Shown one piece after another: positions 1,383-64,000 of a stretch of DNA of 64,000 nt. This stretch comes from a virus, in IMG/VR virus record IMGVR_UViG_3300031784_000013, positions 47,143 to 111,142 of that record; one strand, given 5' to 3'. How positions within the stretch are numbered: position 1 is the first letter of the stretch; the number at the start of each line of letters is the position of its first letter. The position numbers and the translations under genes are program-made. Below the pieces are notes generated by a model that saw only the letters and a list, made by a program, of their open reading frames with translations, was not told where the DNA came from and ran no database searches.

Positions 1383-2561
1383 TTAAGGAATCAAAGTGCT
1401 AGTAGTGGTAGTAGTTGTTGGAGGTGTAGAAGTTGTAGTGGTAGTAGTAGTGATACAAACATTGTTGTCAACTACAGTACCAAGAGCAGCTTCAAGAACA
1501 GCTTCAACAGCAGTAGAAATACCAGCGTTACCTGGAGTGGCAGCGTTAGGAACAGCAACAATCACCATGCTATCCTCATAGATATAATCACCCCACTGAT
1601 AAGCAGAACGGTCGTACTGATTGAACTTGATGTAATAGGTATCATAGATGGTACCAGTGGTTACATAAGTTTCAAAGTTCTCGTTGTAACCATTCATTCT
1701 GTACAAGTGCTTCAAGTAACCTGCCTGATAGCTGTAGAAGTTTTTCTCAAGTTGAGCAATTTCTTCAGCAGTACCAGTTGGGTAAGAAGCTCTCTGTACA
1801 ACAACAGGATCAGCAACAATATCACAATTGTCAGCAACAATGAAGTCAGCAGTGGTAGCAGGACCTTGGTATACGAAAGTACGGAAGTACATTCTGTCAT
1901 ATTCCCAAGGGAATGCAGCAATATCGCAAGGCTGACCATACTTGGTAAGAGGCTTACCAGAGATTCGAAGGATAGTTCCACCTACGTTCTCGAAAGTATA
2001 GAAATCAGACAATGTGATGTTGTCAGGGTTGTTACCAGGAGCAGCAAGGTTCAACTGATAGATGAACTGGTTGATCAACGCATTAGTGTTGACATCAGCG
2101 CAAGGATCAGCACCGCAATCGCAGCAAGGAGCTTGTACAGTTACAGAACGGGTGAAACCGTTGAAGTACAAGGTGTCAAGATAACTAGAATGACCTCTTA
2201 GAGTAAGGGTCACAATTTCTCCACACTGTACGTTCCAATCAGTTACATCAGTGATTTGGACAGCAGGAGTACCGCAACCTGATACTTTGTACCATTCAGT
2301 TACGTTAGATGAGCAACCAGAGCCAGAAGGGCAACCCTTGATTTTATCAGAACGCTTAGAGCCTTGTAGGTAGGTGTTTTGTCTACCTTGAGCTACATAG
2401 AAGTATGGAGCAGCAGCAATGTTAGCAGCTGTAGCCACACTGTAATCGTTTCTGAAGAAACCAACTTGACCAGCGGTTAGATCCTGTGTAGAACCAGTGC
2501 TAGGGAGCGAAGTTTGCCCTACTGGAACTACAAAAAGGGTGGTTAACGAGAAATCAGCCAT
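1383..2561 (-). CDS. Major structural protein (auxiliary capsid/decoration-like) with C-terminal poly-Thr tail
   Basis: 392 aa; downstream of MCP; followed by a terminator; ends CITTTTTTTSTPPTTTTTTSTLIP. Confidence 0.7.
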   Translation of the reverse strand: MADFSLTTLFVVPVGQTSLPSTGSTQDLTAGQVGFFRNDYSVATAANIAAAPYFYVAQGRQNTYLQGSKRSDKIKGCPSGSGCSSNVTEWYKVSGCGTPAVQITDVTDWNVQCGEIVTLTLRGHSSYLDTLYFNGFTRSVTVQAPCCDCGADPCADVNTNALINQFIYQLNLAAPGNNPDNITLSDFYTFENVGGTILRISGKPLTKYGQPCDIAAFPWEYDRMYFRTFVYQGPATTADFIVADNCDIVADPVVVQRASYPTGTAEEIAQLEKNFYSYQAGYLKHLYRMNGYNENFETYVTTGTIYDTYYIKFNQYDRSAYQWGDYIYEDSMVIVAVPNAATPGNAGISTAVEAVLEAALGTVVDNNVCITTTTTTTSTPPTTTTTTSTLIP

Positions 2562-5968: not shown

Positions 5969-5992
5969 TGTTTTAAGCTTTGTTTATTTAAT

Positions 5993-7228: not shown

Positions 7229-7262
7229 ATATGTAGTTAATTATTTGATTGGTTTATTGATA

Positions 7263-7293
7263 TAAATGTACTTTCGTTTATAAAATAATCAAA
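7263..7293 (-). promoter_or_regulatory. Bacteroidota-type promoter TTTG-N19-TACATTTA driving scaffold/MCP
   Basis: Matches the -33/-7 consensus TTTG-N19-21-TAnnTTTG with one change, ~35 nt upstream of the ATG at 7228. Confidence 0.5.
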
Positions 7294-7360
7294 TAAGGAA
7301 TAATCAAAATTGTTGTTTTTTTGACACGTATAGCATTAACTATACTTTTTCCTATATTTT

Positions 7361-34756: not shown

Positions 34757-34759
34757 ATT

Positions 34760-34785
34760 AAGGGAGGATTTGATCCTCCCTTTTT
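34760..34785 (+). terminator. Terminator
   Basis: AAGGGAGGAT/ATCCTCCCTT plus T-run. Confidence 0.75.
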
Positions 34786-34817
34786 CATTTAAAACCAAAT
34801 AATTAAAAGCAAAAACT

Positions 34818-41553: not shown

Positions 41554-41856
41554 ATGAACCAATTCTTTTACACACGGAAAGAACCAATTCAAGGAACTGA
41601 TCCCCTTGAATTCAAAGAGTACCTAGACAGTTTCAACATTGAGAAAGTCATTAGAACTATTATTGTGGAGAATGAAAATCGTTTAGTGTTGCTAGATGAC
41701 ATCCACGAACGTTCTATAGAAGTGCCTGATGTAAATCCAAAGAATGGACAAACCAGAGGATTTAAACGTGAGCGCAACACCTACCAAACTGAAATCTATT
41801 TGACACCAGCAGATTCAGAGAGGTTTGTTAAACTACTCAACATTGTTGACCTATGA
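41554..41856 (+). CDS. Hypothetical protein
   Basis: ORF track. Confidence 0.65.
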   Translation: MNQFFYTRKEPIQGTDPLEFKEYLDSFNIEKVIRTIIVENENRLVLLDDIHERSIEVPDVNPKNGQTRGFKRERNTYQTEIYLTPADSERFVKLLNIVDL

Positions 41857-42611
41857 ATTACCCAATGATCTCTTGTAAGATGATCACTTATGGAAGAGTG
41901 GAGTTTCTCGAAGAGTCTCTCCACTCTTTTCTCATTCAGGACTATCCTGAAAAGGAACTAGTGATTGTCAATGACTATCCTCTACAGAAGCTTGTATTTG
42001 ATCATTCTCAAGTGAGGATTTACAATCTTGATGAGACATTCAAAACTATAGGGGATAAAGAAAACTTTGCTACAGGATTGTGCAAAGGAGAAATCATTTG
42101 TCAATGGGACGATGATGATGTTGCTTTACCGTGGCACTTAAAGAATGTTGCAGAACAATTTACAGATGATGTAAATATTCTTCACTGGGCCACAGGTGTA
42201 TATTACAACAACTCAGCTATTACAAATGTTGGATGGATAGGTAACTCTGGTATTGTGTTCAGGAAGTCTGCATGGCAGGCTATTGGTGGTCATCCTGTAG
42301 AAAACGCTGGATACGATATGACATTCATAAATGCTCTTGCTCATTATGGTGGTAGAAAGTTTGCTGAGATGCCCAAAAAAGATGCTAGCTGGTTCTATAT
42401 GTGGGGAGGAAGAGGTTATCACATGAGTGGTATGGGTACAGACACTAGTGATAGAGCCAATGTAATTGAGAGACATTCAAATCATGTAGAAATTCTCAGA
42501 ACAAGAGGACTGATTCCTACAGGGGATGTAACTTTGAATCCTCATTGGAAACTTGATTACCAAAAACAACTTGAGGATCATGTTACAGAAAATAAAAGCA
42601 GTAATAGTTAA
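41853..42611 (+). CDS. Glycosyltransferase family 2 (GT-A)
   Basis: ISC.MITYGR..FLEESL.SFL.QDYP.KELVIVND; WDDDD. Confidence 0.85.
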   Translation: MNYPMISCKMITYGRVEFLEESLHSFLIQDYPEKELVIVNDYPLQKLVFDHSQVRIYNLDETFKTIGDKENFATGLCKGEIICQWDDDDVALPWHLKNVAEQFTDDVNILHWATGVYYNNSAITNVGWIGNSGIVFRKSAWQAIGGHPVENAGYDMTFINALAHYGGRKFAEMPKKDASWFYMWGGRGYHMSGMGTDTSDRANVIERHSNHVEILRTRGLIPTGDVTLNPHWKLDYQKQLEDHVTENKSSNS

Positions 42612-43216: not shown

Positions 43217-43762
43217 ATGTCAGAAAGCCTTAATCAGATATATGAGAGATTGTATAACACTCCTTCAGATATCAATGAACACCTACCCACTTTAGCAAGC
43301 TACGCTAGTGAATGTGAGCATATCACTGAGATGGGAGTTAGATACATTGTGTCAACGTACGCTCTTCTTATGGGTAAACCAAAGAAGATGATCTCCTATG
43401 ACATACACATGTGTCACTGGGAGCCTGTAAAAGATTTAGTTAAGGAAGACACAGACTTCCACTTTGCCATTGGGAACACTCTAGAGATTGAGATTGACCC
43501 TACAGATCTATTGTTCATAGACACTCTTCACAACTATACACAACTCAAGAAAGAACTTGAGCTACATGCTAAGAAGGTGAATAAGTACATCATCTTCCAT
43601 GACACAACAAGTTTTGAAACTGTTGGGGAATCTTATTCAGGAAATCCAGAGAAAGGAATATGGCCAGCTATTGAAGAGTTCTTACAACTCAATCCTCAAT
43701 GGACGTTGAAAGAAAGATTCACAAACAATAATGGATTGACAATAATTGAAAAAGCCTCCTAG
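43217..43762 (+). CDS. Class I SAM-dependent methyltransferase (Methyltransf_24-like)
   Basis: DINEHL, EMGV, DLLFIDTLH.Y.QL..EL, IIFHDT, NNNGLT. Confidence 0.85.
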   Translation: MSESLNQIYERLYNTPSDINEHLPTLASYASECEHITEMGVRYIVSTYALLMGKPKKMISYDIHMCHWEPVKDLVKEDTDFHFAIGNTLEIEIDPTDLLFIDTLHNYTQLKKELELHAKKVNKYIIFHDTTSFETVGESYSGNPEKGIWPAIEEFLQLNPQWTLKERFTNNNGLTIIEKAS

Positions 43763-51091: not shown

Positions 51092-51501
51092 GATAAAGTT
51101 AGCAAATATTTTGTTTTTGCAGCTTCTCCAGACAAAGCATCTGCAAGATTTGCTATGTCATGATAGCTATTAATCTCTGCGTATGACTTTAGAGAAGAAG
51201 CGTATGCCATCAATTCGCTCACCACAGCTTCAGCAGATGTAGTCATGATTGGATCAATCTTCATGGACGTAGGTCTTCTGCCTGTATAGCCCATTAGTTT
51301 CTCAATCAATCCATCTTTGAAGTCATGTACATAATCATACAAGCCACCAAGAGCTTGATGCTCTGCGTAACTTGTAGTTTGCCAATGCAACAAATGTAGT
51401 TGCTCGTGGAAGTGAGTTAGCTTAGAAGCAATGGATTCGAGAGTCATCCCTCCTCCATTGCCTTTGCTAATCATTTCCTCTGGAAATAAGGATTTTGCCA
51501 T
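51088..51501 (-). CDS. Ferritin/Dps-like four-helix protein (DUF5856-like); probable start MAKSLF
   Basis: LHLLHWQT.SYAEH.ALG..Y...D.LIE..MG...KTKYLLTL. Confidence 0.78.
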   Translation of the reverse strand: MAKSLFPEEMISKGNGGGMTLESIASKLTHFHEQLHLLHWQTTSYAEHQALGGLYDYVHDFKDGLIEKLMGYTGRRPTSMKIDPIMTTSAEAVVSELMAYASSLKSYAEINSYHDIANLADALSGEAAKTKYLLTLS

Positions 51502-51740
51502 TATCCTGCGGATGTAGTAGTTGTTGTAGTTGTTGGCGCAGCTGTAGTCGTTGTAGTTGTTGTAGGTGCAGCTGTTGTTGTAGTGGTGGTAGTTGGAGCG
51601 CAGCATTCGTATGCTGGAACCTCTACCCAATTACCCACTTTAGGCTTCTGTCTTCTTAAGATCAAGCTACCTGCTACTACACGTCCGCCACCATCGTAAC
51701 GTACGTACGCTTTCAAGTCTTTTCTGTTGTAAGCTCCCAT
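51501..51740 (-). CDS. Small protein with mucin-like (APTTTTTTTA)x3 tail
   Basis: LKAYVRYDG.GRVVAGSLILR..KPKVG.W.E...YECC then three poly-Thr runs. Confidence 0.8.
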   Translation of the reverse strand: MGAYNRKDLKAYVRYDGGGRVVAGSLILRRQKPKVGNWVEVPAYECCAPTTTTTTTAAPTTTTTTTAAPTTTTTTTSAG

Positions 51741-51752
51741 AATTTTTTACGG

Positions 51753-52769
51753 TTAATAGTTAAGGTTATATTTATTTTTCAGTTCTTTAATTTTATTTGC
51801 ATAGAACCACGTGCAATATTTTTGAGATTGCTCATCGTTTAGAATTGCATCTAGATGAGGATCTTGTGTTGGATCACCTCCGTTGTGATATTTCCCTTTG
51901 TAGAAGCAATGGTATGTTCCGTTGTGCGTAGATACAATGCCTGCATTGTGAAATAACGTATTCTCTTCAAGTCTTTCAATAGGATCAGTAGCCCAAGAGA
52001 AGTTCATTTCATTAATCACTTTTGTCTCTTGTCCTCTAAACCATAGATTCCAAAGTACTCCCCACATATCTGCACACCAGCTTTGAAATCCTGTATTCTC
52101 ATTCTCAAAGAAGTCTCTGTTCACTTTCTGTAGGTAGGTTCTGATCAATAAAGAATCATTCATAACCTTGTTCCAGAATGTAGCATCAACATCTTTGAGG
52201 AAGTATTGAGCTCCTCCTGAGTGTTCGTTGTTGTCGTAAGCCACTTGCTTATCAACACCAACCAGGCTCATCACTTCTCCAAGAATATCTCTAGTCTTGT
52301 ATTCTTCCAACTTATTTGGAAGCACATCTTTCTCTTTACTTTCAAAGTAGGTTGCATTAATATAACTATTTGTGTTTGACAAATAGCAAATGTCATCCTG
52401 TGTATAATCATCTACATTGAAATTCTTTGTGAACAACACATCAGAATCGCAATAGAATATCGCTTTGTTACTCAACTCTGGATTAGCCTTGAAGTGCTTC
52501 CACAGTGTCCAAGGTCTTAGAATTGGGATGTATATAGGTAGATATTTATCTAGCTCACCCTCATCTTGATAGAAATGAAACTCTGCTTCTGGATAGAGAG
52601 CAATAATTTGTTCCCATTTTGTGTTCTTTGCTCTATTTGTTGGAATGTAAATAAGAACAATCGCCTTATCAGAGTGTCCTATCTCTTTAAGACTTTCCAA
52701 CCACAGATGCACTTGCCATGTAAAATAAGTGTCATCTGGCTGAACGCAGATAAATCTAAGATCCTTCAT
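51753..52769 (-). CDS. GT-A glycosyltransferase resembling plant peptidyl O-glycosyltransferases (HPAT GT95 / SGT1 GT96)
   Basis: YFTWQ, YIPILRPW, FYCDSD (DxD) and SWCADMW motifs in the same order as in HPAT/SGT1. Confidence 0.6.
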   Translation of the reverse strand: MKDLRFICVQPDDTYFTWQVHLWLESLKEIGHSDKAIVLIYIPTNRAKNTKWEQIIALYPEAEFHFYQDEGELDKYLPIYIPILRPWTLWKHFKANPELSNKAIFYCDSDVLFTKNFNVDDYTQDDICYLSNTNSYINATYFESKEKDVLPNKLEEYKTRDILGEVMSLVGVDKQVAYDNNEHSGGAQYFLKDVDATFWNKVMNDSLLIRTYLQKVNRDFFENENTGFQSWCADMWGVLWNLWFRGQETKVINEMNFSWATDPIERLEENTLFHNAGIVSTHNGTYHCFYKGKYHNGGDPTQDPHLDAILNDEQSQKYCTWFYANKIKELKNKYNLNY

Positions 52770-52799
52770 ATGTAGTTGTATTGGTTTTTGGTTTCTCTA

Positions 52800-52943
52800 T
52801 TAAGGAGCAGCTGTAGTAGTGGTTGTGGTGGTACTAGTGCTTAAACTAGCAGTCACCTTAATCAACTGGTCAAGCTGATTTGAGATTTGCCAAAGAAGAT
52901 TGCTCTCCTGGCTCCATCCTATTTGTTTATTTGGAATGCCCAT
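52800..52943 (-). CDS. 47-aa protein MGIPNKQIGWSQESNLLWQISNQLDQLIKVTASLSTSTTTTTTTAAP
   Basis: Hand-translated; N-terminus nearly identical to that of 52946..54130; poly-Thr tail. Confidence 0.8.
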   Translation of the reverse strand: MGIPNKQIGWSQESNLLWQISNQLDQLIKVTASLSTSTTTTTTTAAP

Positions 52944-52945
52944 TG

Positions 52946-54130
52946 TTAATAAGTTTTATTCAATATGAAAATATCACTGTATATACTGTTTCCTGTACTT
53001 GCTGCACCCCACTGAAGGGTAACATCTAACGTATTACTAATTGTTGTATTAAAGGTAGTGCTATTGACCGTGTTGAATGCAAAACCTTCAACTACACCAT
53101 TCACTGTTTTAGTATAATGGAATCCACCTAGAGTGACAATTGATGCTACACCAGCAGCCCCTAGTTGTCTAATAGTGAAATCTATATTCAAATTAAACAC
53201 ATTATTTGTGATGTTCGTAATAGGTTGAGCTCCACTGTCAAGAAAAATTACAGAACCTGACTTTACTCTAACTCTTATTGTTTGATTATTTGTAGCAGTT
53301 AGAAGTCCACCAAATACAGCTCTAAAGCTATCTCCTACAGAGAATCCATTAGCAGGAACAGTAAGAGTTCCTACACCACCATTGATCAAGCTAGTTTCTG
53401 TAGTGGTGTTAGTGATTATAGTGCTGTTTGCTGTCTGAGCAAATAGTCCATAATTTGCTGATCCTGGAAGTGTTGGTGATGTTCCTGAAGATCCGCTTGT
53501 ACCAGCTGAACCTGAAGTTCCTGATGAACCATCAAGGCCATTTAATAAAATCCAACCACTAAGTGAAGATGGTTCATTTGTATTATTATTTATGGTTGAT
53601 TGGTATGAAAATAAACCATCTATAACCATATCACCATTCATATAAGTTGTTCCCGATACATAAGCACCTTTGAATGGAGATGTTCCTGATGTCCCCCTAG
53701 TACCTGATGTTCCAGAAGTACCAGAAGATCCATCTCCACCAGCTGCTCCATCTAGGTTAACAGTCCATGAAGAATATGTTCCACTTCCTGTAACAGTAAC
53801 AGGACCACCAACCACCATTACACCAGTGTTGATGTCATAGCTTACAACTGTACAAGTTTGGTGGTTACCAACATTGTAAGTTATAATAATATCTTGAGCA
53901 GGAGTGTAAGCTAGGCCAGGTTCTACGACAATTGTTGTAGTTACACCTAATGTAAACTCAGTGGTGGAGGTAGTTCTAAATCTATCACCATCATATCCAG
54001 ATGTGCCAGACGTGCCACTAGTACCAGAAATGGTACATAGTTGACAAGAAGCTTTGTCTAACTGCTTTGATATTTGCCAAAGCAAGTTAGATTCTTGACT
54101 CCAACCAATTTGTTTGTTAGGTACACCCAT
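52946..54130 (-). CDS. Fibre/decoration protein with Gly-Thr-Ser collagen-like repeats and CBM5/12-like module
   Basis: Three (SGT)n blocks; FKGAYVSGTTY..GDMV...W module; beta-rich C-terminus. Confidence 0.7.
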   Translation of the reverse strand: MGVPNKQIGWSQESNLLWQISKQLDKASCQLCTISGTSGTSGTSGYDGDRFRTTSTTEFTLGVTTTIVVEPGLAYTPAQDIIITYNVGNHQTCTVVSYDINTGVMVVGGPVTVTGSGTYSSWTVNLDGAAGGDGSSGTSGTSGTRGTSGTSPFKGAYVSGTTYMNGDMVIDGLFSYQSTINNNTNEPSSLSGWILLNGLDGSSGTSGSAGTSGSSGTSPTLPGSANYGLFAQTANSTIITNTTTETSLINGGVGTLTVPANGFSVGDSFRAVFGGLLTATNNQTIRVRVKSGSVIFLDSGAQPITNITNNVFNLNIDFTIRQLGAAGVASIVTLGGFHYTKTVNGVVEGFAFNTVNSTTFNTTISNTLDVTLQWGAASTGNSIYSDIFILNKTY

Positions 54131-54132
54131 GA

Positions 54133-54261
54133 TTATCTTCCCTGTCCTCTATATTTACTAACTTTTTTACCTTTTGGTGTATTCATGTTCCTGGCTTTTC
54201 CAAGTCTTCTTTTACCAAAAGATATCTTACGTTCTACTGCTGCAACTTTAGCCTTTGCCAT
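54133..54261 (-). CDS. Small basic protein, 42 aa ending KYRGQGR
   Basis: Hand-translated; YRGQG C-terminus is a common phage small-protein motif. Confidence 0.7.
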   Translation of the reverse strand: MAKAKVAAVERKISFGKRRLGKARNMNTPKGKKVSKYRGQGR

Positions 54262-54317
54262 TATTTTCTCGAATCTAAATTAATTTTTTGAATATTCAAA
54301 CTCTAACTTGTTGATTA

Positions 54318-54590
54318 TCATTCCTCAATACTGTGGGATGATTTGTTCATCACTGAACTATATGTTGTTAATGAGAGAAGGGCTGCAATCAATCCAGCTT
54401 CTATACCAAGTAGTAGGGCTGCATCAGCGTATGATTTCCCTGCTTCCCAGTTCATAACTATGTGATGAAAGTTTTTCACAAGATCTAGTGCAAAGAGTAA
54501 TGATAAAAACCTTCGTATTGAAAACTTACTATCATTACCCAGCCACATGGGTTCTACGTATTTGAAAACTTTAACTATTATTCTTATCAT
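54318..54590 (-). CDS. Holin-like membrane protein
   Basis: Two hydrophobic segments, S.RR motif. Confidence 0.5.
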   Translation of the reverse strand: MIRIIVKVFKYVEPMWLGNDSKFSIRRFLSLLFALDLVKNFHHIVMNWEAGKSYADAALLLGIEAGLIAALLSLTTYSSVMNKSSHSIEE

Positions 54591-54907
54591 GTAAAGTTGT
54601 TCAGTATTCTGCCAAGTTGATCAACCAACATTAGTGCACCAACCACTATACCAACCGTCCAAGCAACTCTTTTCTTAAACTCTTCTTGCTTCTCCACCTT
54701 TTCTTCAAGCGTCTCAATCTTTGTTTTGAGTGCGTTAATCTCTTCTACAAAACCACCAGATTTTGTTAAAGGATTACCTAGGATAGCATCCACCACTTGA
54801 GTCAGTTTTCCATCAATGGAAGACATTTTTTCTTCCAAGTCATAAAGACGCTGGTCCATACTTTTTAATTCGTTGTTAATTTGCTGCTGATAGGCTTCTG
54901 TTGCCAT
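54587..54907 (-). CDS. Coiled-coil protein with C-terminal TM (holin/XhlA-like); probable start MATEAYQ
   Basis: Heptad pattern then hydrophobic tail. Confidence 0.55.
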   Translation of the reverse strand: MATEAYQQQINNELKSMDQRLYDLEEKMSSIDGKLTQVVDAILGNPLTKSGGFVEEINALKTKIETLEEKVEKQEEFKKRVAWTVGIVVGALMLVDQLGRILNNFT

Positions 54908-55011
54908 GATTAAATCATTTTGTTGTGGTTTGGAAACAACAAAGCACACCCCTGGGGAGGTGTGCTATGGAGTTTTTGGTTGGACGATTATTCAATTCTG
55001 GCGAATAGTAG

Positions 55012-55043
55012 TAAATTTAAAACATGTATTGATAACTACCAAA
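55012..55043 (-). promoter_or_regulatory. Bacteroidota-type promoter TTTG-N20-TAAATTTA
   Basis: Plus strand TAAATTTA 55012-55019 and CAAA 55040-55043 at the head of the minus-strand operon. Confidence 0.45.
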
Positions 55044-55079
55044 AATTCATATATTTAATTCCTAAAAACCAATACGTAA

Positions 55080-57245
55080 GTGATTAATATAGAGAAAAGT
55101 AGAATTGAATTCTTAGAAGAACCATTCGACCAAACTACTAGTGAGGAGGAAAAATTTAAAATCTTATACCTAGCTCCACATCTATCAACAGGTGGTATGC
55201 CATCAGTGCTACTCAAGAGAATACAAGCTTTTGAGGGACTTGATTCAGATATTATTGTTGTTGAGTATTCTAATCACAGCGATGAATACGTTGTGCAGAA
55301 GAATGAAATCAAGAAGCTTGCTACAAAGATGTACACACTTGGTGAGAACAAGATGGAGCTCATAGACATCATCAAGAGACACAATATAGATATTGTACAT
55401 GTTGAAGAGATGGTTGAGGATGGTGTCAATAACTTCCCCATAGAACTTGTCAATGAGCTCTACGATAACGACAGAACTTGGAAGATTGTGGAGACATGTC
55501 ACAATGTTTATTTCAAGCCTGACATAGAAAAGAAGTATCATCCTGATGCTTATGTGTTCTGTACACCATATCACCTACAGACATTTGAGAACATGCCTTC
55601 TCAGAAGTTTGTTCTAGAATATCCAATAGAGAATAAAATTCCGTCAAAAGCAGAAAAGCTTTATGAAAAGATTATGCTTGGTATGGACCCACAGAAGAAG
55701 CATGTACTAAACGTAGGACTGTGGACACAAGGAAAGAATCAGGGAGAAGGTGTTGAGATAGCAAGACAACTTCCTGATATGGAGTTTCACTTTGTAGGAA
55801 ACCAAGCAATCAACTTCAAACACTATTGGGAACCATTGATGGTTGATCTACCAGCTAATGTACATGTGTGGGGAGAACGTAGTGATGTTGATAAGTTTAT
55901 GACAGCCTGTGACATCTTCATGTTTAACTCTACATGGGAATGCAATCCGTTGGTTGTTCGTCAAGCAGCTAGTCATGGTTTACCAATACTAGCAAGGGAT
56001 CTTCCTCAGTATTGTGGAATGTTTGATGATTGGATTACGCCCTTGAAAGAAGATGATGTATTGAATCAACTTCTATCAATCACCGCACCAACCAAGAAAC
56101 CAATTAGCGAAGCACTATTTAACTTCAAGGTGGCTCAGATGATGATTTATAATGCCGTCTTCACTAATGATATGATGCTTCAGAAGATGAATCTAAATTT
56201 CAACTTTGTCAGACAACCGTTTCTAGAAATCACTGGTAGATCAAATAAAGAATACAGGACAAAGTTCTATGATGAAAACGACATTTGTCTCTACGAGAAT
56301 ACAATAAAAGCAAATCATTGGGTGAAGGCCAATAGACAGTGGTTTACAGAATGGAAGGTCAAAGTGTGGGAGAATGACAAACTCATACATGATTACAAGC
56401 TTGACTATACTGATCAACGTGTCTACATATCACTAGAAAGCTCTTCTCTAGGAGATAGCATAGCGTGGATTCCGTATGTAGAGGAGTTCAGAAAAAAGCA
56501 CAACTGTCATGTTATTGTCAGCACGTTCAAGAACTTCTTGTTTGAGAGTGTGTATCCAGAGCTAGAGTTTGTTGAGCCTGGAACAGTGGTGAATAACATC
56601 TTTGGAATGTATTTGATAGGATGGTTTTACGATAGCTCTAGAGAACCAGTGGAACCAAACACTATTCCTCTACAGAAGGCAGCTACAAACATCTTAGGGC
56701 TTGAGTATAAAGAGATTAAGCCTAGGATTGCACACACTGTTTGTAACAAATTTGATAATAAATTTGTTACAATCGCTACCAACTCAACAGCTGGTTGTAA
56801 GTTCTGGACTAGAGAAGCTTGGCAAAAATTGATTAACTATCTCACTGCAAAAGGATACAGAGTGATCAATGTTTCACTAGAGGACAACCCATTTGAAAAC
56901 TGTGAACCTTTAGAAGACAAATCGATGCAGAACACTATGGATGCTATTGCCTGTAGCCAATTCTTCATAGGACTATCTAGTGGACTGTCATGGTTAGCGT
57001 GGGCACTCAATGTTCCTGTTGTAATGATTGCAAACTTCACAGAAGACAATCATGAGTTTGAGTGCATACGAGTGACAAAAAAGAATGTGTGTCACGGATG
57101 CTGGAACAGCTCTAAGTACAGATTTGATAAAGGAGACTGGAACTGGTGTCCTGTACACAAGGGTACAGATAGAATGTTTGAGTGTCAGACAAGCATAGTT
57201 GCAAGTGATGTGATCAGTTTAATTGAAGATCACTCACTTGTCTAG
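55080..57245 (+). CDS. GT4-like glycosyltransferase fused to Aah/TibC-family (autotransporter) protein O-heptosyltransferase
   Basis: N-half PHLSTGGMP...K.Q...SxWECNP (GT-B); C-half SSLGDSIAW catalytic-Asp motif, FIGLSSGLSWLAWA, and four Fe-binding-type Cys in CHGCW...WNWCP...FEC. Confidence 0.85.
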   Translation: MINIEKSRIEFLEEPFDQTTSEEEKFKILYLAPHLSTGGMPSVLLKRIQAFEGLDSDIIVVEYSNHSDEYVVQKNEIKKLATKMYTLGENKMELIDIIKRHNIDIVHVEEMVEDGVNNFPIELVNELYDNDRTWKIVETCHNVYFKPDIEKKYHPDAYVFCTPYHLQTFENMPSQKFVLEYPIENKIPSKAEKLYEKIMLGMDPQKKHVLNVGLWTQGKNQGEGVEIARQLPDMEFHFVGNQAINFKHYWEPLMVDLPANVHVWGERSDVDKFMTACDIFMFNSTWECNPLVVRQAASHGLPILARDLPQYCGMFDDWITPLKEDDVLNQLLSITAPTKKPISEALFNFKVAQMMIYNAVFTNDMMLQKMNLNFNFVRQPFLEITGRSNKEYRTKFYDENDICLYENTIKANHWVKANRQWFTEWKVKVWENDKLIHDYKLDYTDQRVYISLESSSLGDSIAWIPYVEEFRKKHNCHVIVSTFKNFLFESVYPELEFVEPGTVVNNIFGMYLIGWFYDSSREPVEPNTIPLQKAATNILGLEYKEIKPRIAHTVCNKFDNKFVTIATNSTAGCKFWTREAWQKLINYLTAKGYRVINVSLEDNPFENCEPLEDKSMQNTMDAIACSQFFIGLSSGLSWLAWALNVPVVMIANFTEDNHEFECIRVTKKNVCHGCWNSSKYRFDKGDWNWCPVHKGTDRMFECQTSIVASDVISLIEDHSLV

Positions 57246-57440
57246 TCCATACTTAATCCACTTGTACCAGATTCTCTCATGAATAAAGTATTGCAGGGGT
57301 TTCCATAGTAATTCAACTATGCTAAACCCTGCACTTACAGATATCGATCCTGTAATAAACCACATTGCACAGAAGCCAATGGCTGTACTAATTATTCTGT
57401 AGCTTATAGTTTTGGCAATGTGTCGTTTATAACTTACCAT
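57234..57440 (-). CDS. DUF2061 small membrane protein
   Basis: RH.AKT.SYR...K...YF.HER.W. Confidence 0.8.
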   Translation of the reverse strand: MVSYKRHIAKTISYRIISTAIGFCAMWFITGSISVSAGFSIVELLWKPLQYFIHERIWYKWIKYGLDK

Positions 57441-57813
57441 CTTTTCTCATCTGTTCTCTAATCTCTGTTGCAGATATGGCTTTAACTTCCTCTGGGGGAA
57501 CATGTTCTATTACATCATAACCAACACCTCTACCAATATTGATTGATTCAATGTTAGGTATTTTCATAATGCTAAGCTTACCAGATTCAACTAGATCCTT
57601 TAACTCAACAGACAAGTTAATAAGTATCTCTTGTGCTGTCCAAGGATTTCTTTCATCTACAGGAACATCTCTTATACATAGCAAAACTTTCTTGTCTTCA
57701 TTTAAAGCTTGATCAATTAGCCATCTGTGTCCTGTGTGCCAAGGTTGCCATCTACCAATGAACATTGCCCATTCTCCTGATTTGCCAGAAGCTTTTGCCA
57801 ATAAGTTTTGCAT
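57427..57813 (-). CDS. HxGH nucleotidyltransferase (cytidylyltransferase-like / minimal ATP-sulfurylase candidate); probable start MQNLL
   Basis: FIGRWQPWHTGH; GRGVGY; ISATEIR. Confidence 0.75.
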   Translation of the reverse strand: MQNLLAKASGKSGEWAMFIGRWQPWHTGHRWLIDQALNEDKKVLLCIRDVPVDERNPWTAQEILINLSVELKDLVESGKLSIMKIPNIESINIGRGVGYDVIEHVPPEEVKAISATEIREQMRKDGKL

Positions 57814-58556
57814 ATAGTTAACGCTGTTTTTAATGAATGTTGAGGTGCCCATCCAGGCATCCAATGTCTTGGATCACTACATGTGTAGAATTGATATCCT
57901 TCTGGTATAACTGACGCATCATGATAAGTGTATTCAATCCCTAATGCTTCTGCAATATATTCAAAGCTATGTGCAGCTCCAAGTCCCACATCATATTTAT
58001 TTCCTGAAACAACATCGTAATGTGCTAAGGCATAGAGGTTAGCAGATATTATATCCTCTACATATACGAAGTCACGCTTAGGTTCACCAGGAAAAAGTTT
58101 AGCACTTCCTGCTTTCATCATTTGATAAGCCATAGATGACATTGCACCTTTGTGCTCTTCTCCTGGCCCATAGACATTAAAGTATCTAAGAGCTACACCA
58201 CCATTACTGATTACATATTGCTCAGCTACATACTTACTCCAACCGTATAGATTAGATGGATGACTACCATTAATTCCATAGGATGCAGCAGAAGAAGAAT
58301 ATACGATGGGTTTTCTATTCAGCTTACACCAGTCTGTTAATAGCTTTGTAGATTCAAAGTTGACAGTCATCATGTAGTTGACATCTTTCTCTAAAGTGTT
58401 TGAGCATGCTCCTACATGAAAAACAACATCTGGTTTGTGCTCGTCTAACCATTCAATTGTAGCAAGTGCATCTTCATTAATCTCTAAAGGATTGTCGAAA
58501 TGCATCTTTAGGTTACCCCCTATGAAACCATTAGTTCCTGTGATTAATACTTTCAT
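57717..58556 (-). CDS. hldD: ADP-L-glycero-D-manno-heptose 6-epimerase-like SDR
   Basis: TGTNGFIG, FHVGACSNT, YSSSAASYG, YGWSK, LRYFNVYGPGEEHKG.M.S, YQFYT. Confidence 0.88.
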   Translation of the reverse strand: MKVLITGTNGFIGGNLKMHFDNPLEINEDALATIEWLDEHKPDVVFHVGACSNTLEKDVNYMMTVNFESTKLLTDWCKLNRKPIVYSSSAASYGINGSHPSNLYGWSKYVAEQYVISNGGVALRYFNVYGPGEEHKGAMSSMAYQMMKAGSAKLFPGEPKRDFVYVEDIISANLYALAHYDVVSGNKYDVGLGAAHSFEYIAEALGIEYTYHDASVIPEGYQFYTCSDPRHWMPGWAPQHSLKTALTICKTYWQKLLANQENGQCSLVDGNLGTQDTDG

Positions 58557-59299
58557 GGTGTGCTCACGCCTCGTTTAGATACAACAATAGAACACATCTC
58601 GTTAGCGAAGGTGATGGAGTTTGCAATATCTTCCCCTTGTAAATATCTTACAGCAAACGCTGCAAGGAATGTATCTCCAGCTCCTGATACATCTATTGTT
58701 TCTTTTGCTTGTACAGGATAGAGAGTGTTCATATACTTAGCCCCTTTGTTTCCTAGTGTAGCAATCATCTTTGATAACAGCACTACTTCACTGGTTTGAT
58801 TCTTGTTAAACTCTTCCTCGTTAAGCTTGACAAATGTGTAGGCTAGAATTGTTTCTGGAGACAGTTTCTTTTTTGTATCTAGAAAACTTTTATCAGCAAG
58901 TGTGGCTATTTCATAAAGCATTTCTTCTGTAAGGAAGCCTTTGTTATAGTCAGACACAATTACAGCATCAGCCTGTTTGATTAATTGTTTCCTACTTTCT
59001 GTTAGCGTGAACTGTGACATAGTTTCATACTCTTCCTCATCCACTCTAAGAAACATGTGATTGCTCGACTTATCTACATACCTGGTCTTCACTATCACTT
59101 CTTGCTGATGAATACAATCAATCTCATATTCATTTGTAATAGCCTTTATGTTTCTTTCAACATTACCAGCCATTCCTTTTGACACATGTTTTTCTATAGG
59201 TGTGAATACAGGAACAGGAGCTTCAGGACTTAACCTTTTGCATTCTCCGTAAATAAAAACATCGTGACAGAGTTCACCTATTACTACTATCTTTTTCAT
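58553..59299 (-). CDS. hldA: D-glycero-beta-D-manno-heptose-7-phosphate kinase (RfaE domain I)
   Basis: RLSPEAPVPV, GMAGNV, KTR, SDYNKG, DVSGAGDT. Confidence 0.9.
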   Translation of the reverse strand: MKKIVVIGELCHDVFIYGECKRLSPEAPVPVFTPIEKHVSKGMAGNVERNIKAITNEYEIDCIHQQEVIVKTRYVDKSSNHMFLRVDEEEYETMSQFTLTESRKQLIKQADAVIVSDYNKGFLTEEMLYEIATLADKSFLDTKKKLSPETILAYTFVKLNEEEFNKNQTSEVVLLSKMIATLGNKGAKYMNTLYPVQAKETIDVSGAGDTFLAAFAVRYLQGEDIANSITFANEMCSIVVSKRGVSTP

Positions 59300-59675
59300 A
59301 TTCTAGTATTGATGTAGTGGACATGTTATCCACCCTATCGAAATATATAATCTTTGGTATAAACTCAGCTCCTACAATTCTTTTACCCTTGTAATCAGAG
59401 CCAATGACCATTGCATCTGGTTCATACAATCTAATCTGTTCTACTAGTTCCTCCTCACTGTCAAACCCCACAACATCATTTACAAAACGTAGAGATGTTA
59501 GGAATTCTTTTCTGTGATTAAAACAGTTAAAGGGTCTTGTAGAACCCTTTAGCTTCTTTATCCTATCGTCTGCATCTATCCCCACTCTAACATGTCCAAT
59601 GCTTGATGCATGTTGCAATAGCTTCAAGTGTCCTATGTGTAACACATCAAATGCTCCATTCACCCATATCTTCAT
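59274..59675 (-). CDS. hldC: Heptose-1-phosphate adenylyltransferase (RfaE domain II)
   Basis: NGAFDVLHIGH, KLKGSTRP, GSDY, STT. Confidence 0.88.
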   Translation of the reverse strand: MKIWVNGAFDVLHIGHLKLLQHASSIGHVRVGIDADDRIKKLKGSTRPFNCFNHRKEFLTSLRFVNDVVGFDSEEELVEQIRLYEPDAMVIGSDYKGKRIVGAEFIPKIIYFDRVDNMSTTSILEYEKDSSNR

Positions 59676-59974
59676 ATCTCTTCTATCCGTTTTGTTTTAT
59701 CACAGATGAGTAAGTCATAGGATGGTTTGTGGTTCATGATCACCTCACTATACTTACAGTTCCAGTCGCTAAGCTGTTTCACTGTCAAACTAGTGTGGTC
59801 AATTTTAGATGATTGTCCTCTAGCAGTCCAGTAAACTATCTTATGCCCCTCATCGAATAAAGCATTAATCTTATCAATGTTCTCTAGTATAGGAGTGGAG
59901 TGTTGATAGTTGCTTCCTTGCGTGTGGCAGATGGTACCATCTATGTCTACATAAATAACTAATCTCCCTTCCAT
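59672..59974 (-). CDS. Small HAD-family phosphatase
   Basis: YVDIDGTIC, WTARG, KP.YD..ICDK. Confidence 0.8.
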   Translation of the reverse strand: MEGRLVIYVDIDGTICHTQGSNYQHSTPILENIDKINALFDEGHKIVYWTARGQSSKIDHTSLTVKQLSDWNCKYSEVIMNHKPSYDLLICDKTKRIEEI

Positions 59975-60348
59975 ATCCTGTAGCTATCTGAATCAAAGTG
60001 CTCTGTGCTCACTTCAAATATCTCCCCATCTTCCAATGCCTCTAGTTGATGAGGAGTTCCTGGATGTTGTGTTACAACATCCCCAAAATTCAAGTAAGTA
60101 ATATGAGTCACTCCTTTTTCTGTATCTATCCAACGATAGATGAATGTTCCCTTATTGACATACCAGGTTTCTTGCTTAAGTATGTGATAGTGCATTGAGA
60201 ACTTACATCCAGCTTTGAACACTAATATCTTTCCACAATACTTTTCAGAATTGTGTATGATGAGTTCATGTCCCCAACCTTTGGGTATTTTGCATTCAGA
60301 GCACTCGTGAACGTTTTTGATTGACATACTGATTGACTTGTTTAACAC
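59959..60348 (-). CDS. Cupin sugar-isomerase-like protein (mannose-6-P / D-lyxose isomerase-like)
   Basis: KGWG.E, YCGK, SMHYH..K.ETW, PH, EVST.H.D.DSYR. Confidence 0.8.
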   Translation of the reverse strand: MLNKSISMSIKNVHECSECKIPKGWGHELIIHNSEKYCGKILVFKAGCKFSMHYHILKQETWYVNKGTFIYRWIDTEKGVTHITYLNFGDVVTQHPGTPHQLEALEDGEIFEVSTEHFDSDSYRIWKGD

Positions 60349-60739
60349 ATTCTTCTACTAACAGATCTGATGTATTTAAAGAGAGGGCATTCTCTTCCAA
60401 TAAATTTAATTCAAAATCTTTAACATGAAACTGTTCTCTACCCCTAGTATCATCGTAGTGTAAAAATACCCAGGCTACATCTTCAGTAAGGCTATTAAGA
60501 TAGTCTCTAGCTTCTTTATATGGATAAACAAGAGACAAGGTAACATCATCTTCTTGACTGTTTAAGTAGTGGGCGATATCACTCGCTCTATTTAAATTTT
60601 TAATTCGTCCCTCTCTACTGTAATCTTTATTAGCAAATAACTCTCTAAGCTCATCACCATCTATGTTTTTGTACGTAGAGAATTGCTTTGCTAATGTTGT
60701 CTTTCCACTATGTGGTTGACCAAAAAAAACAAGTATCAT
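60296..60739 (-). CDS. cysC: Adenylylsulfate (APS) kinase-like
   Basis: GQPHSGKTT, IDGDELR, DYS.EGR..N. Confidence 0.75.
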   Translation of the reverse strand: MILVFFGQPHSGKTTLAKQFSTYKNIDGDELRELFANKDYSREGRIKNLNRASDIAHYLNSQEDDVTLSLVYPYKEARDYLNSLTEDVAWVFLHYDDTRGREQFHVKDFELNLLEENALSLNTSDLLVEECVKQVNQYVNQKRSRVL

Positions 60740-61536
60740 GGTATAATGTGATTAAATTCTTCAAATTTTTCTTTAGGGATGCATGCACAGTCAAGACATT
60801 TACCACTCTCTGTTTGATATGGTATACCTTCTTGAAATTGTTTTACTACATATCCTAATGATTCTATCTTAGCTTTTAGTTGTTCTCCTGATGTTCCTTG
60901 TTCTTTGAGTAAGTGGTCTTCAAACTCTATGAACATGTAAGGTCTATGTTTATTAATAGTTTCTTTAGCACCATCAATAACACGCGATTCGTATCCTTGC
61001 ACATCTATTTTTATAAATGCAATGTCATTAAACGTATAACTATCCAAAGTTCTTTGCTGAACTGTGTCTCCTTCATAGTTACCAACTCTTACATCTCCAA
61101 AGTTAACTTCTTGTTTGCTGTGGTAGTCAGGAGTCTGTATAATAACTTCTTCATCAATACCATCTCCAATTGCTAAATTATAGCAATATACATTGTCTAA
61201 TCCATTAAGGAATACATTAGAACACAATTGATAATAGATGATGCGTTGTGGTTCAAAACTAAACACTCTACCATGGTCACCAACTAAATGAGAGAAGTCT
61301 ACAGCAAAGTTACCATTATTAGCTCCTATATCAATAATATCTTTCCCTTCACAATCTATTTGATTTCTATCAAGGAAATCAAACATATACTTCTCATACT
61401 GCCACCCCTGTATAATAGAACTTGTTACAGCATTATCATTAGGAAATAATGCATACGTTAGTCTATTAGTCTGAAAAGCATTTTTAAAGTCCTTTTTATC
61501 AAGTTGATATAAGCCTATTTGAAACTTTGTTTTCAT
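60736..61536 (-). CDS. FkbM-family methyltransferase
   Basis: IDIGANNG, SFEPQ, IKIDVQGYE, RP...IE. Confidence 0.9.
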   Translation of the reverse strand: MKTKFQIGLYQLDKKDFKNAFQTNRLTYALFPNDNAVTSSIIQGWQYEKYMFDFLDRNQIDCEGKDIIDIGANNGNFAVDFSHLVGDHGRVFSFEPQRIIYYQLCSNVFLNGLDNVYCYNLAIGDGIDEEVIIQTPDYHSKQEVNFGDVRVGNYEGDTVQQRTLDSYTFNDIAFIKIDVQGYESRVIDGAKETINKHRPYMFIEFEDHLLKEQGTSGEQLKAKIESLGYVVKQFQEGIPYQTESGKCLDCACIPKEKFEEFNHIIP

Positions 61537-62357
61537 TACTTGCTGTATCTAAATCGATCGTAGAACCATTTATAATTAGTGTAAATCCAATCTGTAACAT
61601 CCTTACCTAATAGTTGTTTAGCTTTAGAAGGAACAGGCTCTAATTTAGTTCTGATAACATGATCACCAAATGTACCATACACCTCATCATCTTCTTTTGT
61701 TACCTGCTCTATATTATCAAAGTCATGTTGGAAATGAGGTATTTCTAAGTATCTATATATCCTCATCATCTCTGTATCAGGGTATAGGCAAAGGTCTTCA
61801 AATTTTACAAACAACATCTTGCTATCTAGGCCCATTCTAAATATCTCAGAAAGTCTTTCAAAAGCTAGTCCTACAGGAGGTTGCTGTGCCCAGATATCTA
61901 TTCTCTTAGGAACTGTTGTTCCTTGTCCTTTAGACCAATCTAATATATCAGATTGTTTCTCTGGGTGCTTTCTAAAGTTATTCTCCATAGAAGCAAATAT
62001 ATCACGTGGATCTCTCACCATACATATAATCTTTGGATCTTCTCCTTGTACAAACTTCAGGAAGTCATAATGTATCCCCCATCCTCTACTCTTATCTACA
62101 ACATATTTCTTATGTGTAATAGCATTGTAAAAAGCGTCCATACCAGCTTTAGCAAAAGCTTGCCAACCTACTTTCATCAGCTCAACATCTTGTGCTTTAA
62201 ACTCAGGAGAATTAGTATAATTTGCACGTGCTCCAAATATAAGTTCAAGGACACCACTTGTAGGTGTAGCATATACATCAGGGTTTTGAGCCAAGATGTT
62301 TTGCAATAATGTGCTTCCAGCTCTAGGTAGAGAACTTTGGTAAAATATTTTATCCAC
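61536..62357 (-). CDS. Sulfotransferase
   Basis: LPRAGSTLL 5'-PSB loop; DKSRGW; VRDPRDIFAS 3'-PB; FEDL. Confidence 0.9.
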   Translation of the reverse strand: MDKIFYQSSLPRAGSTLLQNILAQNPDVYATPTSGVLELIFGARANYTNSPEFKAQDVELMKVGWQAFAKAGMDAFYNAITHKKYVVDKSRGWGIHYDFLKFVQGEDPKIICMVRDPRDIFASMENNFRKHPEKQSDILDWSKGQGTTVPKRIDIWAQQPPVGLAFERLSEIFRMGLDSKMLFVKFEDLCLYPDTEMMRIYRYLEIPHFQHDFDNIEQVTKEDDEVYGTFGDHVIRTKLEPVPSKAKQLLGKDVTDWIYTNYKWFYDRFRYSK

Positions 62358-62363
62358 GTTGGT

Positions 62364-63230
62364 TTATTTTAAAGAGTCAATTACATTTTTTACATTAAAT
62401 ATTTCAGATTCGTTATTGTAAGGGAACTCAATAGGATCTCCTCCAATGTTGTACTTACTTAAATACGCATTACGTAACTCAGGAGACGTAGTTTCTGGGT
62501 TGGCTATAACGTTTGTATGTATATCATAACCAAACACATTAGGACTATTAACAATCCACAACACTGTAGAAGGCTTGTTGAGAGCAGCTGCTGCATGTTG
62601 ACCAAAACTATCCATTAACAATCTCTTCTCACTCAAGGTGATAAGAACTAGTAATGCTCTAAATGTATCAGATACACCAAATGTTCCATCATATTTTATT
62701 TGGTCATCTCTCCTGATATGTACAATGTTATACTGCTCCTTAAATTCATTAATAACATTTTCTATTAGGTAGCCAGGAATGTCTCTAGCCCATGAATACT
62801 TTTGTTCTGACTCAGCACCACCGTTAGTTTGCATCAAAAAAATAGGTTTATCAGAAACAAATTTCTTAGAGAAGAAATCCACTTCTCTTTGTGTAAGAAA
62901 TAGTTCTCCAACAGTTCTGGTAACTGGTAAATCATACAATTTACACCATGTTTCAATAAGATGCTCTTCTTGCTTAATATGCTTTGCTTCTAAATAGGGA
63001 TCATGTCCAAATACTATAACTTCTTGGTTCTCAATGTATTCTTTGTAGAAATATGCCTGTTGACCAAACGCATAAGCTCTATCAACATTTTTGTTTCCAA
63101 GAAACACTTCAGGATATCCTGACACAACAATTAGTTTGTCGTTTGGATACTTCTCTTTGATAGAAACACAAATGGCAGTACCAGCAATCACCTTGCCAAT
63201 ACCGCCATTGATTTGAAATATGATATTCAT
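62364..63230 (-). CDS. GT9-like (ADP-heptose-type) glycosyltransferase
   Basis: GGIGK N-terminal loop; DSFGQHAAAAL.KPS.VLW; FGY..H.N. Confidence 0.75.
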   Translation of the reverse strand: MNIIFQINGGIGKVIAGTAICVSIKEKYPNDKLIVVSGYPEVFLGNKNVDRAYAFGQQAYFYKEYIENQEVIVFGHDPYLEAKHIKQEEHLIETWCKLYDLPVTRTVGELFLTQREVDFFSKKFVSDKPIFLMQTNGGAESEQKYSWARDIPGYLIENVINEFKEQYNIVHIRRDDQIKYDGTFGVSDTFRALLVLITLSEKRLLMDSFGQHAAAALNKPSTVLWIVNSPNVFGYDIHTNVIANPETTSPELRNAYLSKYNIGGDPIEFPYNNESEIFNVKNVIDSLK

Positions 63231-63604: not shown

Positions 63605-64000
63605 TTATTTGTTTAAGATTAATTGTTCTAATTTACTAATTCTATCTTCTAAAGATATATTTTTTTCTGCTAATTCTTGAATAGCTTTTGTTAATATAGG
63701 AATTATTTGATTTGGGTTTAAACTTAATGCTGTATTTTCATCATTTGATTCTCCTACAGCTTCAGGTATAATTAATCTAACTTCTTGAGCAATAAATCCT
63801 AGTTGTTTTCTGTATCCTCTTGTTTTACTTGTTTCTTCATTCCAATTAAAACTAACAGGATTTAATTTTTTAACATCTCCTAATCCATATTCTATATTGC
63901 AAATATTTGTTTTTAATCTACCATCAGAAAAAAATGGTATTATTTCACCACCTGCACCAATTTCTAATCCAAATCCAACAAATGGAGCAAGATTATCTGC
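63605..64000 (-). CDS. Tail fibre C-terminus with peptidase S74 intramolecular chaperone (partial)
   Basis: Hand-translated: SDGRLKTNI...LNPVSFNW...GFIAQEV..IIPEAV...KAIQEL coiled coil. Confidence 0.88.
   Translation of the reverse strand, partial: ADNLAPFVGFGLEIGAGGEIIPFFSDGRLKTNICNIEYGLGDVKKLNPVSFNWNEETSKTRGYRKQLGFIAQEVRLIIPEAVGESNDENTALSLNPNQIIPILTKAIQELAEKNISLEDRISKLEQLILNK

Follow-up and report, generated by a model that had tools for sequence, protein, structure and literature searches.

Two putative enzyme-acceptor couples for O-glycosylation of virion proteins in an uncultured crAss-like lake phage

Phage particles are commonly regarded as bare protein. The genome of an uncultured crAss-like lake phage (IMG/VR record IMGVR_UViG_3300031784_000013, 111,142 bp, rated 96% complete) raises the question of what a phage glycosylates when its glycosyltransferase, sugar-nucleotide and sulfation genes lie among proteins with threonine- and serine-rich repeats. 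The window, the whole stretch of DNA analysed here, is the final 64 kb of this record, and positions refer to it unless genome positions are stated. An initial annotation had proposed a self-contained protein O-glycosylation system at 51501-63230. The enzyme genes and the repeat tracts that it named are all present, and profile and fold searches back most of the labels. The phage is likely to attach O-glycans to the proteins of its own particle, within the cytoplasm of the host, by means of two enzyme-acceptor couples. In couple A, a 338-residue glycosyltransferase with a GT-A, retaining-type fold would add the first sugar to Thr of poly-Thr tails and linkers. In couple B, a TibC-type domain would move heptose onto Ser of proline-free (Gly-Thr-Ser)n, or (GTS)n, tracts. 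Enzyme and putative acceptor genes adjoin across hundreds of phages, and comparative genomics gives good support to both assignments. The enzyme families, their folds and catalytic residues and the gene-neighbourhood statistics are established below.

The TibC-type fusion and the (Gly-Thr-Ser)n fibres

The enzyme of couple B is part of a 721-residue fusion (Table 1). Residues 391-716 align with positions 28-372 of the 374 positions of TIGR04414, the curated Aah/TibC equivalog, with a score of 262.7 bits (cut-off 200), and TibC is matched in the PDB at E 1e-48 over TibC residues 62-383. TibC forms a dodecameric ring that transfers heptose from adenosine diphosphate (ADP)-heptose to Ser, with Asp110 as the catalytic base, Thr226 and Lys230 in contact with the beta-phosphate and Trp305 in contact with the heptose (PMC4358343). 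In the alignment, all four residues and the four iron-finger cysteines of TibC are kept in the phage fusion. The LGD motif is present in 63/63 phage TibC domains and SGLSW, which holds Trp305, in 58/63, and at least 53 domains retain Thr226 and Lys230. The cysteines of TibC correspond to those in the iron-finger motifs CHGCW, WCP and FEC, which are found in 54-61 of the 63 domains. Position 300 of TibC selects between D,D- and L,D-heptose, and AAH, with a Ser at this position, takes ADP-L,D-heptose (PMC4358343). The window domain also has a Ser there, which agrees with the adjoining gene for an HldD epimerase.

TibC-type domains were identified on at least 235 IMG/VR contigs, at 53-87% identity, and in 5/5 near-complete genomes of the lineage of the phage. 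The GT4 fusion is present in 58 of the 80 best TibC loci. The TibC polypeptides of relatives also hold S-adenosylmethionine-dependent methyltransferase, FkbM, polysaccharide pyruvyl-transferase, GT32-like or GT2 domains. Single polypeptides of 930-1,475 residues, in which methyltransferase, pyruvyl-transferase, GT32-like or GT2 domains are joined to GT4 and TibC, are encoded at loci L020, L029, L040, L009 and L057. As the tailoring domains are covalently joined to the TibC domain, glycan tailoring and protein glycosylation are physically coupled. The enzymes have no membrane segments and are soluble. No cognate autotransporter was found near the TibC fusion; its neighbours are (GTS)n collagen-like fibres.

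Two (GTS)n proteins are encoded in the whole genome, a 394-residue protein and a large fibre of ~1,500 residues with (GTS)n and (GSS)n tracts in its N-terminal part. The fibre gene spans the junction of the record. The last 141 nt of the record (63860-64000) match its first 141 nt (genome 1-141) at 98.6% identity, which indicates that the record closes on itself and is circular or terminally redundant (the IMG/VR label is linear). The tracts are 5-14 triplets long and proline-free, and the 394-residue protein reaches 23.1 bits with the Pfam Collagen profile, against a cut-off of 27.2. Their earlier description as mucin-like is to be replaced: the (GTS)n tract is a collagen-like Gly-X-Y repeat. 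The first 26 residues of the 394-residue protein are nearly shared with a 47-residue poly-Thr protein encoded next to it (23/26 identical; MG[IV]PNKQIGWSQESNLLWQIS..), and this common N-terminal peptide may serve for docking.

The association of enzyme and fibre was determined in 63 non-redundant TibC loci, each taken with 10 kb on either side. A Gly-X-Y protein of 200-3,200 residues (mostly above 500) is encoded in 47 of them, usually directly downstream and convergent, and these proteins contain 4,640 GTS, 1,889 GSS and 666 GTT triplets. Under a stricter rule, in which (G[TS][TS]) has to be repeated at least four times, 43/63 loci hold such a fibre at a median gap of 1.76 kb. With the same rule, fibres were found in 0/19 and 0/8 unrelated phage loci and in 4/77 structural loci of the same lineage. 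In the reverse direction, 17/47 viral records picked solely by a (GTS)6 DNA pattern, most of them fragments, carry a TibC gene, and so do 6/12 of the records that are at least 60% complete. This neighbourhood association, together with the fact that TibC modifies Ser and not Thr (PMC4358343), is the reason for pairing the TibC fusion with the (GTS)n fibres and not with poly-Thr.

The GT-A enzyme and the poly-Thr proteins

The model of the 338-residue enzyme, built from an alignment of 87 diverse homologues, has a predicted local distance difference test score (pLDDT) of 97.5. Its best structural matches are glycogenin (Z 14.2 over 223 residues), Skp1 AgtA (14.1), LgtC (13.8) and GlyE (12.9), and the DxD motif (D108, D110) is invariant in the 87 sequences. 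Sequence searches of Pfam, NCBIfam and the PDB gave no match to the protein, and no Pfam family is reached at E<=1 in 11 members of the family, for which reason its GT-A identity rests on the fold search. The family, phrog_4417, is essentially viral, with 960 representatives at E<=1e-3. The earlier label of an HPAT/SGT1-like transferase thus stands as far as the glycosyltransferase is concerned, with a GT-A, GT8-like fold; the HPAT/SGT1-like part is unproven, the Pfam HPAT family (PF23452) being matched by none of these 11 members. The link to HPAT is an Atlas lead only, as HPAT occurs on 10% of one neighbouring cluster, and the GT-A fold is compatible with GT95/GT96.

Seven poly-Thr proteins are encoded genome-wide. 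The poly-Thr tails at 51501-51740, 52800-52943 and 1383-2561 are real, as are the (GTS)n tracts at 52946-54130. Four further poly-Thr proteins, including tail-region proteins of 1,876 and 725 residues, lie outside the window. The genes that the initial annotation placed at 51501-63230 are indeed found there, but the system is not confined to this region, as the large (GTS)n fibre and these four proteins lie beyond it. Candidate acceptors of couple A would be the 79-residue and 47-residue mini-proteins, the 392-residue structural protein and the four tail-region proteins outside the window.

The N-domain of the 79-residue family is 61-98% identical in the first match of each of 19 loci, and its gene always adjoins that of the GT-A enzyme. 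In some relatives the poly-Thr linker is followed by a C-terminal head domain; by sequence, the design of this family looks like an anchor, a linker and a head. The poly-Thr tail of the 392-residue protein is retained in 70/70 relatives read. The metagenomic homologues of this protein number more than 3,500, all named "hypothetical", and one of them is labelled as belonging to a metagenome-assembled genome of Cytophagia (a weak hint at the host); no relative was found among GenBank phages, and no PDB sequence match was obtained. In both the 392-residue and the 79-residue families, the poly-Thr tails begin within two residues of a Cys or Cys-Cys that is conserved in relatives. The poly-Thr tails of phages of Gram-positive hosts are without this Cys.

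Poly-Thr follows the GT-A gene. Among the TibC loci, a poly-Thr open reading frame (ORF) is present in 23/24 with a GT-A gene versus 5/39 without one (Fisher 2e-11, with kinship ignored), and the gap between GT-A gene and poly-Thr ORF is at most 30 bp in 16/23 loci. The initial idea that the TibC-type enzyme acts on poly-Thr is not upheld by these counts. In a distant GT-A clade, a protein with multiple poly-Thr tracts is encoded less than 4 kb away in 16/19 loci, mostly directly upstream; for a second distant clade (P0113), no viral loci were found. The co-occurrence across relatives of transferases and Thr/Ser-repeat proteins, which had been suggested as a check, was thus found in two forms: GT-A with poly-Thr and TibC with (GTS)n fibres. 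Within the lineage of the phage itself co-occurrence is uninformative, because poly-Thr tails and TibC are both universal there.

All eight GenBank phages examined, with hosts in Enterococcus, Lactobacillus, Staphylococcus, Clostridium, Lacticaseibacillus, Arcanobacterium and Chryseobacterium, carry a GT-A homologue in the structural module together with a poly-Thr protein. The GT-A gene usually comes right after that of a major head, major tail or immunoglobulin-like protein with a poly-Thr ending or tract; in Enterococcus phage 9183 it lies close to such a gene. Enterococcus phage phiFL1A has poly-Thr at the end of two of these proteins, gp45 (major head) and gp50 (major tail). For phage 9183, one tract is read in a frame of its own where the head gene ends (3' side), and another is carried by the major tail protein encoded nearby. 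Out of frame with the gene that it overlaps, poly-Thr is encoded across the 3' end of the major head gene of phage 9183 (L169:3770-3889) and of the major tail gene of Arcanobacterium phage TPWB06 (L171:3720-3926). In these two phages, only a fraction of the subunits might receive a poly-Thr tail, through programmed frameshifting. Literature searches on the phrog_4417/poly-Thr pair, and on phage TibC homologues or (GTS)n fibres, returned nothing relevant within a coverage that left out most subscription journals.

Proposed donor supply and decoration of the glycan

From these enzymes and neighbourhoods we infer the acceptors, the sugars, the decorations (heptose, methyl and sulfate) and their purpose. 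The acceptors of couple B would be the 394-residue protein and the ~1,500-residue fibre. Their glycan would be extended by the fused GT4 domain and by a GT9-like enzyme, and decorated by an FkbM methyltransferase and a NoeE-like sulfotransferase. HldA, a HAD phosphatase, HldC and HldD would let the phage supply ADP-heptose, possibly with a cupin in place of GmhA, and 3'-phosphoadenosine 5'-phosphosulfate (PAPS) would probably be supplied by an NMNAT-like transferase and an adenosine 5'-phosphosulfate (APS) kinase. The likely purpose of the glycans would be to stiffen linkers, to shield from proteases and to stabilise triple helices without proline.

Table 1. Features of the proposed glycosylation system in the 64-kb window.
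Feature	Position	Strand	Basis
392-residue structural-module protein, C-terminal tail of two poly-Thr blocks, putative acceptor	1383..2561	-	sequence, relatives
GT2 glycosyltransferase, possible further member of the system	41853..42611	+	profile; in some relatives contiguous with GT-A and TibC fusion
79-residue mini-protein, 48-residue N-domain (ends ..AYECC) and three poly-Thr blocks, putative acceptor	51501..51740	-	sequence, relatives
338-residue GT-A, GT8-like glycosyltransferase (phrog_4417, 2.6e-54), putative poly-Thr O-glycosyltransferase	51753..52769	-	profile, model, synteny
47-residue mini-protein ending in poly-Thr tail	52800..52943	-	sequence
394-residue protein, three (Gly-Thr-Ser)n collagen-like tracts, putative TibC-fusion acceptor	52946..54130	-	sequence; Pfam Collagen 6.4e-5, below cut-off
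721-residue fusion, N-terminal GT4 and C-terminal Aah/TibC-type protein O-heptosyltransferase domain	55080..57245	+	TIGR04414, PDB TibC
DUF2061 small membrane protein, sulfation-module member	57234..57440	-	profile, synteny
NMNAT-like nucleotidyltransferase, ~128 residues, start uncertain	57427..57813	-	profile, synteny
HldD, ADP-glyceromanno-heptose 6-epimerase homologue	57717..58556	-	TIGR02197 2.6e-49, under equivalog cut-off
HldA, heptose-7-phosphate kinase homologue	58553..59299	-	TIGR02198 3.1e-40, under equivalog cut-off
HldC, heptose-1-phosphate adenylyltransferase homologue	59274..59675	-	TIGR02199 3.9e-26, under equivalog cut-off
100-residue HAD phosphatase, candidate GmhB analogue	59672..59974	-	weak matches; equal length in relative G004
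Cupin	59959..60348	-	Pfam/NCBIfam
APS-kinase-like P-loop kinase	60296..60739	-	PF01583, above cut-off
FkbM-family methyltransferase	60736..61536	-	profile; FkbM domain fused to TibC polypeptide in relatives
Sulfotransferase	61536..62357	-	PF13469 1e-18; best NCBIfam/curated match carbohydrate sulfotransferase NoeE
288-residue GT9-fold, heptosyltransferase-like glycosyltransferase	62364..63230	-	fold search
C-terminal S74 chaperone end of large fibre	63605..64000	-	1399-residue N-terminal part at genome 1-4197 across junction

Beside the TibC gene, a module of DUF2061, NMNAT-like, APS kinase, sulfotransferase and GT9-like genes recurs in 8-11 loci, the first two being always accompanied by the other three. 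Two of its members in the window, the ~128-residue NMNAT-like nucleotidyltransferase and the DUF2061 protein at 57234-57813, had been overlooked by the initial annotation. The NMNAT-like protein is a candidate for a minimal ATP sulfurylase, and with this activity the phage would make PAPS for itself. The model of the 288-residue protein (pLDDT 78.6) matches 3tov at E 2.8e-11, followed by WaaF, WaaC and TibC. Three of seven homologues of this protein match Pfam GT9 (PF01075; best 3e-5), and the window protein itself gives no match.

The HldD-HldA-HldC-HAD-cupin block is inserted between the NMNAT-like and the APS-kinase genes, in the same order in the window phage and in its relative G004. Both phages with the block keep the cupin within it, and this protein could be a non-orthologous heptose-7-phosphate isomerase that replaces the absent GmhA. 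Of the ADP-heptose pathway claimed at the outset, homologues of HldA, HldC and HldD are present, and GmhA is missing. HldA, HldC and HldD were found in 0/80 TibC loci within 10 kb, and HldA is present in 1/5 near-complete genomes of the lineage. A heptose pathway typical of TibC phages was considered and rejected on the counts from these loci and from 50 whole records, none of which holds it. The ADP-heptose block is a rare add-on inside the recurrent sulfation module, and the self-contained donor supply is an unusual feature of this genome. Given the rarity of the block, other carriers of TibC must use the host supply or another donor.

At the related locus L056, a GT2 gene (5326-6078) adjoins a GT-A homologue (6075-7007). 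The two window ORFs at 42553-43215 and 43217-43762 have no Pfam, NCBIfam or PDB match, and their labels as GT-A and methyltransferase are unconfirmed.

Alternative readings and comparison with known systems

Several observations weigh against O-glycosylation of the phage's own proteins by the two couples. The neighbourhood statistics are phylogenetically non-independent within lineages, and, the phage being uncultured, glycosylation is derived from genes alone. The 79-residue and 47-residue proteins are no more than candidate virion components. About half of the near-complete (GTS)n phages are without TibC, so that such fibres need not be glycosylated by TibC. Arg286 of TibC contacts adenine N1 and is the basis of its ADP specificity, and the exchange R286A cripples or inactivates the enzyme (PMC4358343). 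At this position the window protein has Thr, as do 59 of 62 phage domains, the other three having Ala, which leaves the donor nucleotide-sugar of the phage clade unproven. On the supply side, no SIS/GmhA isomerase was found anywhere in the genome, HldA, HldC and HldD score below their equivalog cut-offs, the HAD protein is just 100 residues long, and HldD occurs in 0/50 other TibC-bearing phage records (12 of them at least 90% complete).

The closest alternative is a single pathway, in which the TibC-type enzyme heptosylates the poly-Thr tails and GT-A, GT4 and GT9-like enzymes only extend the product into a mucin-like coat. The enzymes and both kinds of tract do lie inside 12 kb, and GT-A, GT2 and TibC genes are contiguous in some relatives. 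This pathway is nevertheless unlikely: 34/39 TibC loci without GT-A have no poly-Thr ORF within 10 kb, GT-A and poly-Thr are paired, without any TibC match, in phages that infect Gram-positive bacteria, and the residue modified by TibC is Ser, not Thr (PMC4358343). A different target is proposed by the reading that the enzymes remodel the host envelope (lipopolysaccharide (LPS) core, O-antigen or capsule, for instance to block superinfection), the Thr/Ser tracts being flexible linkers. ADP-heptose, GT9 and GT4 enzymes are classic tools of LPS-core synthesis, and free glycans are the substrates of NoeE-type sulfotransferases. We regard envelope remodelling as quite improbable, since the TibC domain passes a protein-specific equivalog model, the adjacency of enzyme and tract recurs in unrelated phages, including those of Gram-positive hosts without LPS, and, in this crAss-like genome of lytic type, the genes are found in the region that encodes fibres and structural proteins. 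We saw no lipid carrier, no flippase and no transferase anchored in a membrane.

The phage DNA itself could also be the target, with glycosylation of hypermodified bases protecting it against restriction, and phage glycosyltransferases that hypermodify DNA are known. This is highly improbable here: the TibC family is protein-specific, a search of the genome revealed no thymidylate-synthase-type (dCMP hydroxymethylase) homologue, and none of the ten large ORFs scanned in the replication region shows a match to a base-modifying enzyme. Eight of these correspond to polymerase, helicases, primase, exonuclease and RIIA/RIIB, and two are unmatched. A search for Tet/JBP enzymes matched nothing, which carries little weight because its controls were equally silent. 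DNA modification was rejected on these limited negatives, namely the missing hydroxymethylase and the ordinary replication ORFs. The phage's own virion proteins as target, which had been preferred over host LPS or DNA from the start, fit the soluble enzymes, the fibre and structural neighbours and the recurrent adjacency of enzyme and acceptor.

Glycosylation of virion proteins by the two couples resembles several known systems in part. As in the bacterial autotransporter heptosyltransferases (BAHT; TibC-TibA and Aah-AIDA-I, PDB 4RAP/4RB4; PMC4358343), the TIGR04414 score, the catalytic Asp, the contacts to the beta-phosphate and to heptose and the iron finger are found in a soluble, cytoplasmic enzyme near a repetitive Ser-rich putative acceptor, with an ADP-heptose supply at hand. 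Unlike BAHT, the enzyme is phage-encoded and fused to GT4 (with more tailoring domains in relatives), Arg286 is replaced by Thr or Ala clade-wide, and a collagen-like (Gly-Thr-Ser)n fibre takes the place of the neighbouring autotransporter. The 338-residue enzyme is closest in structure to GT8-type retaining GT-A enzymes with a DxD motif (glycogenin, Skp1 AgtA and GlyE, which acts in the pneumococcal serine-rich-repeat system; Z 12.9-14.2), several of which act on protein-linked acceptors. It differs from these in belonging to an essentially viral family without a Pfam or NCBIfam profile match. Glycosylated Thr-rich Gly-X-Y proteins are represented by Bacillus BclA, with GPT repeats, and by Riftia cuticle collagen, with galactosyl-Thr. 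Their O-glycans are carried on the triple-helical region and can stand in for hydroxyproline as a stabiliser. In the phage fibre, by contrast, the triplets are GTS, GSS and GTT without proline, and heptose, attached to Ser, is proposed as the first sugar.

To our knowledge, virion glycosylation by a phage has been experimentally demonstrated in mycobacteriophages only. Che8, Corndog and Myrna glycosylate their virions, according to the descriptions of Freeman et al. 2023 (PMID 37329881) in PMC12363180 and PMC11256854. As far as these descriptions go, soluble phage glycosyltransferases act there on the phage's own capsid and tail-tube proteins and produce a glycan layer, similar to what is proposed here. 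The enzyme families differ by description, and the hosts in our case are Gram-negative or unidentified. Here the putative acceptors are poly-Thr tails and collagen-like fibres, and synthesis of the phage's own sugar nucleotide, a methyltransferase and a sulfation module come in addition.

A wider reading, made as one joint claim, is possible rather than probable. Its (GTS)n part holds that many phages would build their fibres from proline-free collagen-like helices, which would fold or stay stable only after phage-encoded O-heptosylation and subsequent decoration with methyl, pyruvyl or sulfate groups. Its second, separate part holds that poly-Thr tails would be a portable tag, recognised for glycosylation by a viral GT8-like enzyme whether the protein belongs to the head, the tail or the decoration of the particle and whether the host is Gram-positive or Gram-negative. 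If this joint claim were true, virion glycosylation would be a widespread modular feature of phage particles, and the present genome a rare self-sufficient version with its own ADP-heptose and PAPS.

Should both couples act in the proposed way, glycan coats would be frequent among environmental and gut-related phages. The consequences would extend to the stability of particles, their adsorption to hosts, grazing and recognition by the immune system, as well as to the reading of metagenomic structural genes annotated as "hypothetical". The proposal offers a protein O-heptosyltransferase clade with a new type of acceptor, a short genetically encodable tag (poly-Thr) with its cognate enzyme, and possibly the first sulfated glycans on a bacterial virus. 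Several carriers are culturable, among them Enterococcus phage phiFL1A (gp51), Clostridium phage phiCTP1 (gp19) and Chryseobacterium phage MA9V-3 for the GT-A enzyme and Microcystis phage Mel-JY01 for TibC, which makes the claim directly testable.

No near-identical phage was found in GenBank by megablast. The structural genes at 4415-11979 include those for the terminase, the portal and the major head protein. The terminase is closest to that of Leptolyngbya phage Lbo-JY46 (40%), followed by those of Cellulophaga phi4:1-like and crAss-like phages. In this crAss/phi4:1-like genome, RIIA- and RIIB-like proteins are encoded at 32432-36296 (phrog_612 8.6e-59; phrog_609 4.2e-15).

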